DNA of 64,000 bases from Eledone cirrhosa (taxonomy: Eukaryota): NCBI GenBank assembly GCA_964016885.1, contig OZ024750.1:13020001-13084000 (forward strand). Direction: 5' to 3'. The position numbers were made by a program, and so were the translations under genes. Below are positions 60,965 through 63,539 of this stretch, piece by piece. Positions within the stretch are counted from its first letter, which is position 1. Each line of letters begins with the position of its first letter. The notes under the pieces are model-generated. The model did no database searches. It was not told the origin of the DNA and saw only the letters and a list, made by a program, of their open reading frames with translations.

Positions 60965-63539
60965 ATTAATAGATAGATACATAGATAGACAAATATATAC
61001 GTATGTGTATATATATATAGGGGATATATATATATGTTATTGATAGATAGATAGACAAATATATATGTATGTGCATATGTATATATATATACATATATAT
61101 AGGGGATATATATATATTATTGATAGATAGATAGACAAATATATACGTATGTGCATATGTATATATATATATATACATATATATAGGGGATATATATATA
61201 TATATATAGGGGATATATATATATTATTGATAGATAGATAGACAAATATATACGTATGTGCATATGTATATATATATGTATATATATATGTATATATATG
61301 TATATATATATAATCACTTGATTAAATATTAAAACTAAAGAGTAGAAGGACATCATTTAAGGAAGCTGATAATTTTCCCTACAAATTATTCCCTATAAAT
61401 CCGCAGTAAATATATATTACAATGCTTAAACAGAGAAAAACGTCATTGACAGTCAATATATTTACATACAAGATGGCACCAAATTATTTTTAATTTCATG
61501 CTCAACAATACAATAGCCAAAAAGCAGGTTGGACAATACAACAAATATACATGAAAATACAACAAATTGACTTGTACTGGAATAGACATTTAAAGCAATT
61601 ATTATAAACAGTTACATATAAAATAACAATTACATGTGCAAATAAAAAATAACTGTGGGACAAAAAATTCATTAAACACACAATACAAAGCAACACTGAA
61701 AATAAAACTACAGCTACAAACATATAAAGCCATTCAAGCTCTGCCCATTAAATATAACACAAATAATATACAATTTTAACATGTGGAGAGTAATGTATTT
61801 TACTTGAAAATATACAATAAAGCTTTTATTTATAATTATCAAATTAACTGTCTCCACGAATTAATTTTATAAATAATATAATTTGTAAAATTTCAATTAA
61901 AATATAAAAAACCATTTCATAGGTTACAGTTTTATACAACTTATACTTTAGTTATTTATATAAAGTGTTGGCCAATGGCAACTTATGCTTCCAAGCTGTG
62001 AAAAATGAACCCACAGATTCTATATATTTGCAGGTATCTTATACAGACATTGCCTTAGAGCCATGATAAGAATATCTTAACATAACCTCATTAAAAATAA
62101 TGAGGCTATAAAAAGGCCAATTTCTGAGATACCATCATCATAAGATAGTAGATGATGCTAGACCAGATGTAATTTGACTATACATAAAATGCCAAATAAG
62201 TTTTAAATATATTCCATAAATTAAACAGAATTTCCTATTTATTTATATCCATGTACAAAATGGTCCATTTATCTTAAAACATGAACATTTGAAATTAATT
62301 TATATTTTTCTTAATAACCTAACTTCAATAGTTTAATAGTTTCTGTAAATTGAAAATATAGACACTAGAAAATTCAATCTTACCTCAAGTACGTGTACAG
62401 TTTCGAAAGAATCAACAACTGTCTTTGTTTGTTTAATTGTCTCAACTTCTTTCCTTGCCTTCAAGTAAATAAAAAAGAAATATTTTATGAAGTAAGATAA
62501 ATATTCAAATTTCTCAAAACTGTTTTTTACATAAATTACAATTAATGAAAAAAATAATCTTCTTATAAAGTAGCTCAATCAAAAAACAAATAATTATCTC
62601 AATATTAATTTTTTATAAGTGTTAAGATACATAATAAAATATATCTATACTATCTATTTTCATTTAATATGAAAAAGGATTCAATTCTCTTTAAGCAAAA
62701 ATAGGAAGAAATTCTGCTTTACCTTGAAACCTCGGTAGGCAGCTTGTATTGTGACAGCAGCCTGTTCTGCAATGTCCTCTTCTTCAGATATATCAGCAAA
62801 TTCTAAAATTAAAAAATTATGAACAAGATGCAATGAAATTTTCAAACAATTATTTTCTCAAAATAAATTATTCCTATTTCATTTGAAATAAAATCTCTCT
62901 ATATTAAAGAATATATTAAGTAGAAATAGCTATTTTTTGTTTATCATAAATACATATTAATTCTAAGATGTAAAATGAACCCACAGATTCTATATAATTG
63001 CAGGTATCTTATACAGACATTGCCTTAGAGCCATGATTAGACCATTATTAGACTATATTATGTAGTCAATGATACAGCGATACTTCTATTTCTATTCTAA
63101 AACTTTGCCTGCCTCATTCCAAATATATTTCCTTTACAACCTTTAATGTTTACAAGATTTTATTAGGCTCCTATATTTAAGAGTGCCCAGCAAAGTACAA
63201 TGTGTAATGCAAGCAATAATAAGCAATGTAGACTAAATTACCTAACACATCAAGGACACATGATGATACAATTTCTCCATAGTCATTTGCAGCTTTAACG
63301 GTGTATGTTCCTGCATCTTCTGGAAATACTTCAGGAATCATTAAAGTAGATTCATTAGCACCAGGAATTACATGATACATTTCTCCATCTTCGATGAGCA
63401 TGTTGTTATAATACCATGTAATATTAGGAATTGGTTGACCTTTGTATTTACATACAAACGATATAGATCCACCTTCTTCTACTGTTTGATCAATTAGAGA
63501 AATTTCAAAAATAGGAGCCATATCACCAGGTTGTTTGAT
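1..63539 (-). CDS. Giant titin/twitchin/obscurin-like Ig-Fn3 muscle protein gene (internal portion, 64 exons, both ends outside window)
   Basis: Minus-strand exons bounded by GT-AG with compatible phases translate to I-set Ig (W...DxGxYxCxAxNxxG) and titin-type Fn3 (WxxPxxDGGSxIxxYxxE...YxFRVxAxNxxG) domains. Confidence 0.95.
286..591 (-). CDS. Fn3 exon (306 nt, phase 1-1)
   Basis: ORF 269..622 trimmed to [16 protein letters not shown]...WKKPKDDGG...[12 protein letters not shown]. Confidence 0.9.
1039..1338 (-). CDS. Fn3 exon (300 nt)
   Basis: ORF 1028..1363; ttttccag acceptor, gtaagt donor. Confidence 0.9.
1456..1755 (-). CDS. Fn3 exon (300 nt)
   Basis: [40 protein letters not shown]. Confidence 0.9.
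2140..2445 (-). CDS. Fn3 exon (306 nt)
   Basis: ORF 2117..2482 trimmed to splice sites. Confidence 0.9.
4146..4349. mobile_element. MITE with ~25-bp terminal inverted repeats (Tc1/mariner-like)
   Basis: ttatatctgtataaatacagagtgt at left matches reverse complement of acattctgtattgatacagatataa at right (2 mismatches). Confidence 0.55.
4584..4889 (-). CDS. Fn3 exon (306 nt): [50 protein letters not shown]
   Basis: Translated by hand; AG/GTAATT; missed by ORF track. Confidence 0.9.
5046..5333 (-). CDS. Ig exon (288 nt), Fn3-adjacent type
   Basis: ORF 4981..5343; [13 protein letters not shown]...[11 protein letters not shown]. Confidence 0.9.
5754..5926 (-). CDS. Ig C-half exon (173 nt, phase 2-1)
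   Basis: [46 protein letters not shown]. Confidence 0.88.
6275..6386 (-). CDS. Ig N-half exon (112 nt, phase 1-2)
   Basis: [37 protein letters not shown]; Trp codon split TG|G. Confidence 0.88.
6723..7028 (-). CDS. Fn3 exon (306 nt)
   Basis: ORF 6694..7038 trimmed to splice sites. Confidence 0.9.
7352..7654 (-). CDS. Fn3 exon (303 nt)
   Basis: ORF 7335..7775 trimmed; ttttccag/gtaagt. Confidence 0.9.
7734..7920 (-). mobile_element. tRNA-derived SINE, family A, full length
   Basis: Pol III A/B-box-like TGGCAGTATCG / GAGTTCAAATCCC on minus strand; 17-bp TSD ttacatataaaaataat (7717-7733, 7921-7937); about 12 copies in window. Confidence 0.9.
8413..8715 (-). CDS. Fn3 exon (303 nt)
   Basis: [32 protein letters not shown]. 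Confidence 0.9.
9363..9650 (-). CDS. Ig exon (288 nt)
   Basis: [11 protein letters not shown]...[19 protein letters not shown]...[11 protein letters not shown]. Confidence 0.9.
9820..9992 (-). CDS. Ig C-half exon (173 nt)
   Basis: [46 protein letters not shown]. Confidence 0.88.
10117..10231 (-). CDS. Ig N-half exon (115 nt)
   Basis: [39 protein letters not shown]. Confidence 0.88.
10543..10826. mobile_element. Tc1/mariner-pogo-type MITE interrupted by a 5'-truncated family A SINE (10624-10731)
   Basis: TA-ccgtatttcccggc ... gccaggaaacatgg-TA imperfect TIRs; SINE flanked by TSD atttgaaaacaaataat. Confidence 0.7.
11006..11311 (-). CDS. Fn3 exon (306 nt)
   Basis: ORF 10986..11279 extended to acceptor. 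Confidence 0.9.
11757..12059 (-). CDS. Fn3 exon (303 nt)
   Basis: [40 protein letters not shown]...[12 protein letters not shown]. Confidence 0.9.
12222..12406 (+). mobile_element. Family A SINE, full length
   Basis: A/B boxes on plus strand; 13-bp TSD attattatcatca. Confidence 0.9.
13220..13790. mobile_element. Degenerate family B SINE fragments in both orientations
   Basis: gttaggaagggcat (plus) and atgctcttcctaataccaaccaca (minus) match family B copies. Confidence 0.5.
14208..14504 (-). CDS. Fn3 exon (297 nt), first Fn3 of the gene within the window
   Basis: [32 protein letters not shown]. Confidence 0.9.
14736..14915. repeat. Imperfect (GT/GA)n microsatellite
   Basis: gtgtgagtgtatgaga units. 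Confidence 0.85.
15380..15515 (-). mobile_element. Family A SINE, 5'-truncated
   Basis: Matches 7734-7920. Confidence 0.85.
15957..16241 (-). CDS. Ig exon (285 nt), MyBP-C C5 / twitchin core type
   Basis: [38 protein letters not shown]...[11 protein letters not shown]. Confidence 0.9.
16357..16498 (-). mobile_element. Family A SINE, long subfamily with extra ~30-bp G-rich segment
   Basis: Extra ttgggagaggggaaaatcgattaaact also present at 29550 and 49650. Confidence 0.8.
16604..16873 (-). CDS. Short Ig exon (270 nt)
   Basis: [37 protein letters not shown]...DVAEYSMTV; missed by ORF track. Confidence 0.88.
17108..17245. repeat. Degenerate ~24-bp minisatellite
   Basis: tatagttattgccaatat units repeated about 5-6 times. 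Confidence 0.7.
17515..17781 (-). CDS. Short Ig exon (267 nt)
   Basis: [31 protein letters not shown]. Confidence 0.9.
18586..18981 (+). mobile_element. Head-to-tail tandem pair of family A SINEs with three copies of the TSD
   Basis: gttattatttcctg at 18586, 18777 and 18968; period 191 bp. Confidence 0.9.
19504..21201 (-). CDS. Large non-globular G/D/R/S-rich repeat exon (~566 aa), probable cassette or alternative terminal exon; donor uncertain
   Basis: 591-codon ORF in very AT-rich DNA; strong phase-1 acceptor ttactttttcag at 21202; weak phase-1 donor gtatta at 19503 keeps frame; 57-bp tandem repeats. Confidence 0.7.
22570..23042 (+). mobile_element. Internally deleted mariner element
   Basis: TIRs tatgttcaataagtaatgagaaattttcaggagag / ctctcctgatattttctcattatttattgaacata; interior relic YAIKVCV...EAYEM...RWFKRFSKG resembles mariner transposase HTH. 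Confidence 0.75.
23293..23559 (-). CDS. Short Ig exon (267 nt)
   Basis: [31 protein letters not shown]. Confidence 0.9.
24237..24503 (-). CDS. Short Ig exon (267 nt)
   Basis: [27 protein letters not shown]. Confidence 0.9.
24934..25200 (-). CDS. Short Ig exon (267 nt)
   Basis: [27 protein letters not shown]. Confidence 0.9.
25555..25824 (-). CDS. Short Ig exon (270 nt)
   Basis: [27 protein letters not shown]. Confidence 0.9.
26032..26088 (-). mobile_element. Heavily 5'-truncated family B SINE tail with TSD ctatctca
   Basis: (cat)n-tttacgtctgctttttccctgcttgcaagggtggga near-identical to 38288 and 42710 copies. Confidence 0.8.
27006..27284 (-). CDS. Divergent short Ig exon (279 nt)
   Basis: [40 protein letters not shown]...[10 protein letters not shown]; phase 1-1. 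Confidence 0.82.
27520..27710 (-). mobile_element. Family B SINE 3' part, diverged
   Basis: catcatttaacatcc...gatgcccttcttaacaccaaccaca. Confidence 0.7.
28200..28440 (-). mobile_element. Probable Helitron Pif1-helicase C-terminal relic
   Basis: Minus-strand fragments [10 protein letters not shown] and [12 protein letters not shown] resemble Helitron motifs FAMTINKSQG and GLDLxxxxFSHG; stops and frameshifts present. Confidence 0.5.
29141..29520. repeat. 17-bp minisatellite (taatgactatatgtata), about 22 copies
   Basis: Direct tandem units abutting a SINE tail. Confidence 0.9.
29521..29729 (-). mobile_element. Family A SINE, long subfamily
   Basis: Matches 16357 and 49621 copies. Confidence 0.85.
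29981..30163 (-). mobile_element. Family A SINE, full length
   Basis: TSD taatttaat; A/B boxes. Confidence 0.9.
30743..31012 (-). CDS. Short Ig exon (270 nt)
   Basis: [40 protein letters not shown]. Confidence 0.9.
31924..32190 (-). CDS. Short Ig exon (267 nt)
   Basis: [35 protein letters not shown]. Confidence 0.9.
32410..32668 (-). CDS. Short Ig exon (259 nt, phase 0-1)
   Basis: [25 protein letters not shown]. Confidence 0.88.
33124..33321 (-). CDS. Charged K/E/D linker exon (198 nt, phase 0-0)
   Basis: ORF 33067..33321 trimmed at gtgaga donor. Confidence 0.82.
33692..33857 (-). CDS. Charged E-rich linker exon (166 nt, phase 2-0)
   Basis: [55 protein letters not shown]; needed for phase continuity. 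Confidence 0.82.
34054..34245 (-). mobile_element. Family B-related SINE 3' part
   Basis: (cat)n tail, ggatgcccttcctaacaccaaccaca. Confidence 0.7.
34490..34775 (-). CDS. Ig exon with WSKGKW motif followed by DWKAALKHR (MyBP-C C1 / IGFN1-like)
   Basis: [34 protein letters not shown]...[14 protein letters not shown]; 286 nt, phase 1-2. Confidence 0.88.
34917..35143 (-). CDS. Ig C-half plus start of next Ig (227 nt)
   Basis: ORF 34876..35151 trimmed. Confidence 0.85.
35310..35421 (-). CDS. Ig N-half exon (112 nt)
   Basis: [37 protein letters not shown]. Confidence 0.88.
35865..36037 (-). CDS. Ig C-half exon (173 nt)
   Basis: [26 protein letters not shown]...[14 protein letters not shown]. 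Confidence 0.88.
36576..36690 (-). CDS. Ig N-half exon (115 nt)
   Basis: [39 protein letters not shown]. Confidence 0.88.
37338..37637 (-). CDS. Ig exon (300 nt)
   Basis: [40 protein letters not shown]; missed by ORF track. Confidence 0.88.
37962..38128 (-). CDS. Ig repeat 11, part c (167 nt)
   Basis: [24 protein letters not shown]...[14 protein letters not shown]. Confidence 0.88.
38288..38570 (-). mobile_element. Family B SINE (tRNA head truncated, CORE-like middle, (ATG)n tail)
   Basis: Near-identical to 42710-43027. Confidence 0.85.
38620..38970 (-). mobile_element. RTE-clade LINE relic, AP-endonuclease C-terminus
   Basis: [36 protein letters not shown] matches the RTE/Rex3-type SxIDF...VKRGAxLSTDHHLV motif. 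Confidence 0.75.
39046..39122 (-). CDS. Ig repeat 11, part b (77 nt)
   Basis: [26 protein letters not shown]. Confidence 0.88.
39390..39466 (-). CDS. Linker plus Ig repeat 11, part a (77 nt)
   Basis: [26 protein letters not shown]; phase 1-0. Confidence 0.82.
39675..40492 (-). CDS. Fused exon (818 nt): Ig repeat 8 part c, EEKKP linker, intronless Ig repeats 9 and 10
   Basis: ORF 39667..40200 extends in frame to acceptor at 40493. Confidence 0.9.
40790..40990 (+). mobile_element. Family B-related SINE 3' part, plus orientation
   Basis: aaaagcacccagc...gttggcattacgaagggcatccag...catgctaacatggaaaa. Confidence 0.65.
41005..41081 (-). CDS. Ig repeat 8, part b (77 nt)
   Basis: [26 protein letters not shown]. 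Confidence 0.88.
41519..41556 (-). CDS. Ig repeat 8, part a (38 nt)
   Basis: [13 protein letters not shown]; phase 1-0. Confidence 0.85.
42090..42330 (+). mobile_element. RTE/Rex3-type LINE 3' end relic
   Basis: [22 protein letters not shown]...[14 protein letters not shown] resembles the RTE ORF C-terminus. Confidence 0.65.
42399..42565 (-). CDS. Ig repeat 7, part c (167 nt)
   Basis: [24 protein letters not shown]...[16 protein letters not shown]. Confidence 0.88.
42710..43027 (-). mobile_element. Family B SINE, near full length (tRNA head, CORE-like domain, RTE-like (ATG)n tail)
   Basis: Minus strand tggttagagcattggcc...gagttcaattct head, ccttgagcaagacacttta CORE-like, ends gacgtaaaatgatgatg. 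Confidence 0.85.
43111..43313. mobile_element. piggyBac-type MITE
   Basis: TTAA ends with cctttag / aaaggg TIRs; second copy at 50196-50427. Confidence 0.75.
43557..43633 (-). CDS. Ig repeat 7, part b (77 nt)
   Basis: [26 protein letters not shown]. Confidence 0.88.
43910..43947 (-). CDS. Ig repeat 7, part a (38 nt)
   Basis: [13 protein letters not shown]. Confidence 0.85.
44743..44909 (-). CDS. Ig repeat 6, part c (167 nt)
   Basis: ORF 44738..44932 trimmed. Confidence 0.88.
45025..45156 (+). mobile_element. RTE LINE relic (post-RT region)
   Basis: [25 protein letters not shown] resembles the RTE motif RLRWFGHV. Confidence 0.6.
45343..45419 (-). CDS. Ig repeat 6, part b (77 nt)
   Basis: [26 protein letters not shown]. 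Confidence 0.88.
45559..45630 (-). mobile_element. Family A SINE 3' fragment
   Basis: ttgtttctactttaggcacaaggcc...ttatcgacccc. Confidence 0.75.
45804..45841 (-). CDS. Ig repeat 6, part a (38 nt)
   Basis: [13 protein letters not shown]. Confidence 0.85.
45979..46145 (-). CDS. Ig repeat 5, part c (167 nt)
   Basis: ORF 45962..46222 trimmed. Confidence 0.88.
46322..46398 (-). CDS. Ig repeat 5, part b (77 nt)
   Basis: [26 protein letters not shown]. Confidence 0.88.
46496..46533 (-). CDS. Ig repeat 5, part a (38 nt)
   Basis: [13 protein letters not shown]. Confidence 0.85.
46801..46967 (-). CDS. Ig repeat 4, part c (167 nt)
   Basis: ORF 46793..46981 trimmed. Confidence 0.88.
47150..47325 (+). 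mobile_element. RTE LINE relic, start of RT domain
   Basis: [43 protein letters not shown] matches the P.FKKGD...CSNYRGISL motif. Confidence 0.75.
47556..47632 (-). CDS. Ig repeat 4, part b (77 nt)
   Basis: [26 protein letters not shown]. Confidence 0.88.
47749..48607 (-). CDS. Fused exon (859 nt): Ig repeat 1 part c, intronless Ig repeats 2 and 3, KPE linker, Ig 4 part a
   Basis: ORF 47737..48378 extends in frame to acceptor at 48608; internal 297-bp period. Confidence 0.9.
49264..49340 (-). CDS. Ig repeat 1, part b (77 nt)
   Basis: [26 protein letters not shown]. Confidence 0.88.
49452..49495 (-). CDS. Ig repeat 1, part a (44 nt)
   Basis: [15 protein letters not shown]. Confidence 0.85.
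49623..49829 (-). mobile_element. Family A SINE, long subfamily
   Basis: TSD taaaataataat; small internal deletion. Confidence 0.82.
49950..50122 (-). CDS. Ig C-half exon (173 nt)
   Basis: [13 protein letters not shown]...[14 protein letters not shown]. Confidence 0.88.
50196..50427. mobile_element. piggyBac-type MITE
   Basis: TTAA-ccctttagc ... gctaaaggg-TTAA. Confidence 0.82.
50479..50621 (-). CDS. Ig N-half exon (143 nt, phase 0-2)
   Basis: [48 protein letters not shown]. Confidence 0.85.
51965..52152. repeat. (TA)n and (TG)n microsatellites
   Basis: Direct observation. Confidence 0.95.
52159..52525. repeat. ~370-bp polypurine (AAG/AAAAAG) tract
   Basis: Almost exclusively A/G on plus strand. 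Confidence 0.95.
52898..53545. repeat. Minisatellite, 40-bp unit built from ~19-21-bp subunits
   Basis: acacagtctacagatgttgacagtgtgtagatgttgatag with period 40 (53081, 53121, 53161...). Confidence 0.9.
54608..58174 (-). CDS. Giant acidic repeat exon (3,567 nt, 1,189 aa, phase 0-0); putative elastic spacer
   Basis: 1,258-codon ORF; donor GAG|gtaaat at 54607; most plausible in-frame acceptor ttattaaag at 58175; phases match flanking exons. Confidence 0.85.
54909..55290 (-). repeat. Coding 42-bp tandem repeat x9 ([14 protein letters not shown])
   Basis: Visible in DNA and protein. Confidence 0.92.
55715..58020 (-). repeat. Coding 141-bp (47-aa) tandem repeat x16 with higher-order structure
   Basis: [47 protein letters not shown]; 423- and 282-bp periodicities. 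Confidence 0.92.
59484..59657. repeat. Near-perfect nested inverted repeat (fold-back)
   Basis: 59484-59531 pairs with 59610-59657; 59529-59555 pairs with 59565-59591. Confidence 0.92.
60430..60555 (+). mobile_element. RTE LINE 3' end fragment embedded in (TA)/(CA) microsatellite
   Basis: [30 protein letters not shown] matches the RTE C-terminal GxRxRGRP...MxDRxxWR motif. Confidence 0.7.
60900..61312. repeat. Compound microsatellite array, about 4 units of ~75 bp (GATA/TA/GGGG)
   Basis: tattgatagatagatagacaaatatatacgtatgtgcatatg...tagggga repeated. Confidence 0.85.
62384..62458 (-). CDS. 75-nt exon, C-half of IQ motif ([25 protein letters not shown])
   Basis: AG/GTAAG; phase 0-0. Confidence 0.82.
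62723..62802 (-). CDS. 80-nt exon, N-half of IQ motif ([27 protein letters not shown])
   Basis: ttttag acceptor, gtaaag donor; phase 1-0 bridges flanking exons; not in ORF track. Confidence 0.85.
63242..63539 (-). CDS. Ig exon (298 nt), titin/kettin I-band type
   Basis: [36 protein letters not shown]...[19 protein letters not shown]. Confidence 0.9.

Follow-up and report, generated by a model that had tools for sequence, protein, structure and literature searches.

Giant muscle proteins and the IQ motif

Proteins of the titin/connectin family (chordate connectin, Sallimus/I-connectin, Ce-titin and twitchin/projectin; PMC12198301) combine tandem I-set immunoglobulin (Ig) domains, low-complexity spacers and Ig/Fn3 repeats. 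A gene of similar build runs along the minus strand of the DNA analysed here, a window of 64,000 nucleotides (nt) from Eledone cirrhosa (GenBank assembly GCA_964016885.1, contig OZ024750.1, positions 13,020,001 to 13,084,000), where two small exons of this molluscan titin/connectin-like gene together encode one complete IQ motif, located after an Ig domain and ahead of a giant acidic spacer. The terms 'IQ motif' and 'calmodulin' are not found in the main text or the five supplements of PMC12198301, figures aside. Twitchin/projectin is a thick-filament kinase that has no giant spacer, with a size of about 530 kDa (PMC12040844), and the titin isoforms of scallop striated muscle are different from those of catch muscle, with no IQ motif mentioned in the portions available of the papers that describe them (PMC3114093, PMC12040844, PMC5963113).

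IQ motifs are defined by hydrophobic residues at positions 1-8-14, absence of proline and a net charge of +2 to +5, with Gly7 favouring a compact wrap of the bound partner (PMC4914028). In obscurin, calmodulin binding by the IQ motif does not depend on calcium, and the motif has no protein kinase C (PKC) serine as in neurogranin (Young et al. 2001, PMC2196875), while the worm and fly obscurins are without the mammalian IQ domain according to a 2026 review (PMC12812942). Single IQ motifs are also carried by PEP-19, neurogranin and neuromodulin, small disordered neuronal proteins in which the motif is preceded by an acidic stretch, as it is in the window, but whose anchor pattern and PKC serine are unmatched there (PMC5122967).

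A complete IQ motif encoded by two small exons

The exons and introns concerned are the following, in the order of transcription; X1, X2 and X4 are sequencing runs and contig 17 belongs to X4.

63242 to 63539, minus strand: Ig exon before the IQ motif, I-set, 298 nt, ending in phase 1 (Pfam I-set 70.7 bits); spliced in X4 contig 17
62803 to 63241, minus strand: intron of 439 nt, GT-AG, absent from the X4 contig and present in DNA runs X1 and X2
62723 to 62802, minus strand: 80-nt exon, phase 1 to 0, encoding the acidic linker and IQ positions 1-9; spliced in X4
62749 to 62747, minus strand: codon of the IQ isoleucine, inside the 80-nt exon
62459 to 62722, minus strand: intron of 264 nt, GT-AG, interrupting the IQ motif after position 9; absent from the X4 contig
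62384 to 62458, minus strand: 75-nt exon, phase 0-0, encoding IQ positions 10-14 and a short linker; spliced in X4
62455 to 62453 and 62446 to 62444, minus strand: codons of Arg11 and Val14, inside the 75-nt exon

An original prediction, made from the sequence alone, had proposed that joining the 80-nt and 75-nt exons would yield a full IQxxxRGxxxR motif. AG acceptors and GT donors flank both exons on the minus strand at the coordinates it gave, and the spliced motif carries every consensus position (I1, Q2, R6, G7, F8, R11 and V14), with the hydrophobic 1-8-14 pattern, no proline and a net charge of +3 over positions 1-14. The accompanying claims on reading frame hold as well, since omission of the 80-nt exon leads to a stop within about 6 codons and that of the 75-nt exon leaves the frame intact. 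The splicing of the two exons to each other, again as predicted, is seen in contig 17 of run X4 (1,446 nt, depth 10.2), which covers 63541-63242, 62802-62722 and 62457-62384 and leaves out both introns, which measure 439 and 264 nt and read CT..AC on the plus strand, joining the Ig, 80-nt and 75-nt exons. These exon-exon joints were not found in DNA runs X1 and X2, which cover the same stretch. The type of run X4 is unrecorded, and no run is recorded as RNA; X4 nevertheless behaves as RNA, its word share of 0.24 fitting exon-only cover and its depth, over the stretch examined, being confined to exons and repeats.

The IQ family of Pfam (PF00612, cut-off 20.3 bits) is matched by the 80-nt exon alone at 21.5 bits and by the unspliced 57-amino-acid (aa) frame 62687-62857 at 25.2 bits. 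The motif had been described as hidden from the list of open reading frames (ORFs), from which it is in fact missing, but only owing to the 60-aa ORF cut-off, as the 57-aa frame scores without any splicing. The spliced product was scored with a profile built from 38 non-mollusc IQ segments in place of Pfam, and inclusion of the 75-nt exon raises the profile score from 22.2 to 35.0 bits; without this exon Arg11 is lost and a proline falls at position 10. Aligning the 80-nt exon to the 75-nt exon was uninformative, and the IQ exon, searched against the PDB, had 6 weak matches, the best at E 0.007. As to rarity, the pattern IQxx[FYW][RK]G[FYWH] has one match in the six frames of the window and two across all of 60 Markov controls as long as the window, in which a stricter IQ pattern has none. 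An origin of the motif by chance or artefact was rejected on the X4 splice joints and on this rarity in the controls.

A 73-nt direct repeat occurs in two copies in the window, 96% identical (61999-62071 and 62969-63041), in the introns that flank the small exons; related sequence is abundant in the DNA runs, so that it is probably a dispersed repeat.

Conservation in molluscan orthologues

The likely orthologues are unnamed predictions, namely Elysia chlorotica EGW08_001885 (RUS90390.1, here P0176), the UniParc entry UPI00065B97E4 (P0089) and Tegillarca granosa KUTeg_001478 (P0179). In a set of 278 giant Ig proteins that had been fetched, a predicted protein of Tegillarca (15) or Elysia (6) is the best match for 21 of the 47 window ORFs that have matches, and these matches keep their order along the gene over 37662-31691. 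Where an orthologue is the best match, identity exon by exon is 40-63%, and the order of Ig and Fn3 domains is collinear. When the spliced segment is used as the query, the Elysia protein and P0089 come first (114 and 111 bits) and the next protein follows at 80 bits. Both share with the window the pre-IQ Ig, the acidic linker and the IQ motif, which reaches 22.0 bits with PF00612 in P0176 and 21.7 bits in P0089. Positions 1, 2, 6, 7, 11 and 14 are I, Q, R, G, R and V in all three proteins, and 13 of 20 positions around the IQ are identical, against about 41-46% identity in the neighbouring Ig; the acidic linker beside the motif has diverged among the three, whereas the consensus positions are unchanged. 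The IQ motif and its position are thus conserved in the window and two other proteins, one of them from a gastropod.

The stretch following the motif comprises:

54608 to 58174, minus strand: giant spacer exon, 3,567 nt, phase 0-0, 1,189 aa, with a donor placed from sequence only
50479 to 50621, minus strand: first exon of the post-spacer Ig, phase 0 acceptor, Pfam I-set, bounds from sequence; aligns just after the P0089 IQ
49950 to 50122, minus strand: second exon of the post-spacer Ig, on the tree path nearest to the post-IQ Ig of Elysia and P0089

In a quick tree (106 rows, 95 columns), the pre-IQ Ig of the window groups with those of Elysia and P0089 (support 85 in the Shimodaira-Hasegawa-like approximate likelihood-ratio test, SH-aLRT), and the post-spacer Ig of the window lies nearest to the post-IQ Ig of the same two proteins (80, at an open fork). 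The Elysia protein has the order of the window, that is, Ig, IQ, a spacer of about 1,370 aa and Ig. In P0089 there is no giant spacer and 54 aa separate the IQ from the next Ig, a length close to the 48 aa in the window form minus the giant exon, which aligns to P0089 at 37% over 270 columns. P0089 may be either a real isoform or an incomplete gene model. P0089 keeps the IQ without a spacer and Elysia has both, which makes the 3,567-nt spacer exon a likelier cassette than the 75-nt exon; the giant exon is therefore likely to be optional, as judged from the orthologues. The X4 contig runs on for 245 nt beyond 62384 and, if spliced to an acceptor at 58174, would end at 57930, exactly at a k-mer branch point produced by the spacer repeats. 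The coincidence supports a direct splice from the 75-nt exon to the giant spacer exon, the acceptor being deduced from the contig end.

Comparison with obscurin

The original prediction had noted a resemblance to the IQ of vertebrate obscurin, and this is upheld by the alignment, in which the window IQ is identical to obscurin-type records at 11-12 of 20 positions. Like the window protein, obscurin carries a single IQ in a giant Ig-rich muscle protein, with acidic residues upstream and without the PKC-site serine, which in both is replaced by alanine before the aromatic-Arg pair. The surroundings differ. The obscurin IQ lies directly before an Ig and upstream of SH3, RhoGEF and PH domains, about four Ig domains further on (PMC2196875), whereas the window IQ closely follows an Ig and precedes the 1,189-aa spacer. 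SH3, RhoGEF and PH domains are absent from the 51 window segments scanned with Pfam, among which the region corresponding to theirs lies, and from P0176, P0179 and P0089; the window segments contain no kinase either. Membership of the obscurin/UNC-89 group was rejected on this domain content.

Shared descent of the Ig next to the IQ was considered with profiles, whose ranks lean towards it by narrow margins, and with the quick tree. With a profile of the mollusc post-IQ Ig, the top non-self hit of 8,869 Ig matches is the IQ-adjacent Ig of a Glandiceps UNC-89-like protein (80.8 vs 79.5 bits) and that of Saccoglossus is 15th overall; the IQ-adjacent Ig of vertebrate obscurin comes only 2,308th, and the set is redundant. 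With the reverse profile, the post-IQ Ig comes out on top in both orthologues, among 26 in Elysia and among 9 in P0089. On the tree, descent of the IQ-Ig unit from one source requires 6 changes, at least 2 of them forced, and common descent of all IQ-adjacent Ig domains is unsupported, as these domains are not grouped.

A possible calmodulin tether and its alternatives

Since the motif fits the IQ definition and the obscurin IQ binds calmodulin in either calcium state, both without the PKC serine, the window IQ is fairly likely to tether calmodulin, independently of calcium, where the spacer begins. By analogy with the IQ motifs of obscurin and myosin, it is likely that the region forms a helix, that its partner is calmodulin and that one calmodulin molecule would be held with calcium present or absent. 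In known complexes the C-lobe of calmodulin takes the IQ's N-terminal half and the N-lobe the C-terminal half (PMC4914028). The Ile-Gln half from the 80-nt exon would here bind the semi-open C-lobe, and the other half, Gly7-Phe8-Arg11-Val14, which the 75-nt exon completes, would touch the N-lobe to give a compact wrap. Calmodulin on the IQ might then work as a local calcium sensor on the filament.

Several points weigh against this reading. IQ motifs bind myosin light chains too, which leaves the choice of partner ambiguous (PMC4914028). The conservation comes from two orthologues with a mutual identity of 55-63%, while the bivalve protein P0179 starts downstream of the IQ and so carries no information on the motif in bivalves. 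Splicing was observed in a single contig of a single study, from one run whose type is unrecorded, and contigs lose rare isoforms. In addition, the post-IQ Ig of the window is not grouped with that of obscurin on the tree, and the obscurin calmodulin result therefore transfers by analogy only.

The ambiguity of partner gives some room to another muscle EF-hand protein, for example one of the myosin light chains, essential or regulatory, all the more as Gly7 suits the compact essential-light-chain mode (PMC4914028) and a yeast myosin V IQ peptide is among the 6 weak PDB matches (E 0.41). Such a partner is nonetheless unlikely: the window IQ is single rather than one of a tandem pair, small IQ proteins and PCP4/PEP-19 lie next to it in the Atlas (score 0.90, no more than a lead), and obscurin, the closest tested case, gave calmodulin in six out of seven two-hybrid clones (PMC2196875). 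That the motif might be a conserved charged helix or a leftover, with no EF-hand partner in vivo, is a thought prompted by the shortness of IQ motifs and by Pfam scores merely 1-2 bits over the cut-off, calmodulin binding itself being only predicted; it is improbable in view of six consensus positions kept in three proteins beside a diverging acidic linker, and of the two chance matches in 60 controls.

The acidic stretch together with the IQ could instead work in the manner of PEP-19 or neurogranin, speeding calcium exchange on bound calmodulin. Six acidic residues lie at positions -16 to -6, Atlas puts PCP4 second, and acidic/IQ modules inside larger proteins have been proposed (PMC5122967). 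PEP-19 requires hydrophobic anchors at -16, -14 and -12 and a proline at -9 (PMC5122967), of which the window has one anchor of three and no proline, while Elysia has none of the three anchors and P0089 one, making such an activity very unlikely. The assignment of the motif to the class of neurogranin and GAP-43 thus stands as a partial likeness, but it fails on the PKC-site serine, which is absent, and on the anchors, one of three being in register. Finally, alternative splicing of the 75-nt exon could turn calmodulin binding on and off, given its phase 0-0 and the damage to the motif when it is skipped (loss of Arg11, proline at position 10, profile drop). The sole contig includes the exon, however, and both orthologues retain the residues that it encodes; the regulation by exon skipping suggested in the original prediction is not borne out and is very unlikely. 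A skipping joint was also not found in the X4 contigs over the stretch examined, which excluded 58174, contigs being prone to lose rare forms.

IQ motifs in other giant Ig proteins

Of the 284 proteins fetched, 107 contain the IQ pattern; most of these are fish obscurin isoforms, and the others include hemichordate UNC-89-like and titin-like proteins and a sea-star MLCK-like protein. The hemichordate proteins P0122, P0177, P0069 and P0159 and the MLCK-like protein P0064 of Patiria are thus further invertebrate giant Ig proteins with an IQ, in one to six copies; unlike in the window, their IQ directly precedes an Ig, and some of them contain a RhoGEF or kinase domain. A strict IQ was not found in any of 32 other named or labelled records, many of them partial, which include arthropod titin/Sallimus, twitchin and obscurin, nematode giants, flatworm, rotifer, amphioxus, crinoid and hemichordate proteins and vertebrate titin fragments. 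The earlier remark that such a motif is not known from twitchin or Sallimus agrees with the records checked, although their partial nature makes the absence of IQ from titin, twitchin, Sallimus-type and UNC-89 records weak evidence.

IQ motifs of P0122, P0177, P0069 and P0159 have all three PEP-19-type hydrophobic anchors, with the proline at -9 also present in P0122, and are candidate acidic/IQ modules within giant muscle proteins, of the kind proposed in PMC5122967. In P0159, an IQ-Ig-Ig unit is repeated six times.

The IQ motif type and its occurrence in a giant muscle protein, obscurin, are known already, and domain scans flag the motif in public predictions. An IQ in a titin of a protostome, next to a giant spacer that is probably optional, was not found described in the searched literature; that search covered open-licence publications, older invertebrate connectin sequencing papers lying outside its scope, and found no description of an IQ in mollusc titin. 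Because the type of motif, its occurrence and its detection by standard scans are known, the finding is no more than modestly surprising until binding and some effect have been demonstrated. Even so, with a conserved IQ next to a giant spacer in a protostome titin-class protein, the question whether a molecular spring is acted on directly by calcium and calmodulin can be put to a small and defined target, and the range over which IQ motifs are known in the titin/obscurin family is widened to molluscs, hemichordates and sea stars. On a broader and rather doubtful view, mollusc titin would contain a built-in calcium switch, with IQ-bound calmodulin altering spacer stiffness or filament attachment and splicing of the spacer exon tuning the length range of the muscle, and the IQ-Ig unit would be ancestral to bilaterians and shared with obscurin, split by spacer insertion in molluscs and absent from those titin records of arthropods, nematodes and vertebrates that were checked.

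The host gene and its giant spacer

The window consists of AT-rich DNA, and its minus strand carries a portion of one giant gene with many exons, which leaves the window at both ends. Besides the exons given above, it contains:

272 to 48642, minus strand: remainder of the gene, with tandem I-set Ig exons, charged low-complexity exons and then Ig/Fn3 repeats (Pfam)

This remainder is collinear with Elysia P0176 and Tegillarca P0179. In the Pfam scan I-set domains are found throughout, the later Ig being mixed with 11 fn3 exons, and Fn3 domains come in runs of three and five or more. With the twitchin repeat pattern as yardstick for these Fn3 runs, twitchin/projectin was rejected, the window having a long tandem-Ig region, the 1,189-aa spacer and the Fn3 runs just described. 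The gene is likely to be a titin/connectin-like giant, neither obscurin nor twitchin, an identity that comes from its orthologues. A homologue search with the Ig exon gave one distant cockroach titin.

The giant spacer exon is rich in E/V/T/S/D, with 16 marker motifs at 47-aa spacing and 8 at 14-aa spacing, and encodes a probably elastic segment; used as a query, it has no homologue at E<=0.001 among 7,994 candidates. A 593-aa open frame rich in D, G, S and R, with short repeats, lies within the Ig array (19457-21238, minus strand). It matches no Pfam family above cut-off and none of the fetched proteins, and is possibly a second large optional exon.

Over 272-63539, a part built like an I-band region, of tandem Ig and spacers, apparently belongs to the same gene as a part with Ig/Fn3 repeats, as in the Tegillarca model P0179; in arthropods and C. 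elegans the two parts are separate genes (PMC12198301). From 39670 to 48642 (minus strand) there is a run of near-alike Ig domains that all match one Ig of Elysia (3171-3230) and of Tegillarca (578-637), and the pattern of matches points to a lineage-specific tandem expansion. The most conserved Ig of the window (34480-34776, minus strand) is 62% identical to both mollusc orthologues, and a PDB search with 34483-34776 returned only generic Ig matches. It is followed by charged K/E-rich exons (33070-33862), an arrangement reminiscent of the N2A/PEVK junction of vertebrate titin.

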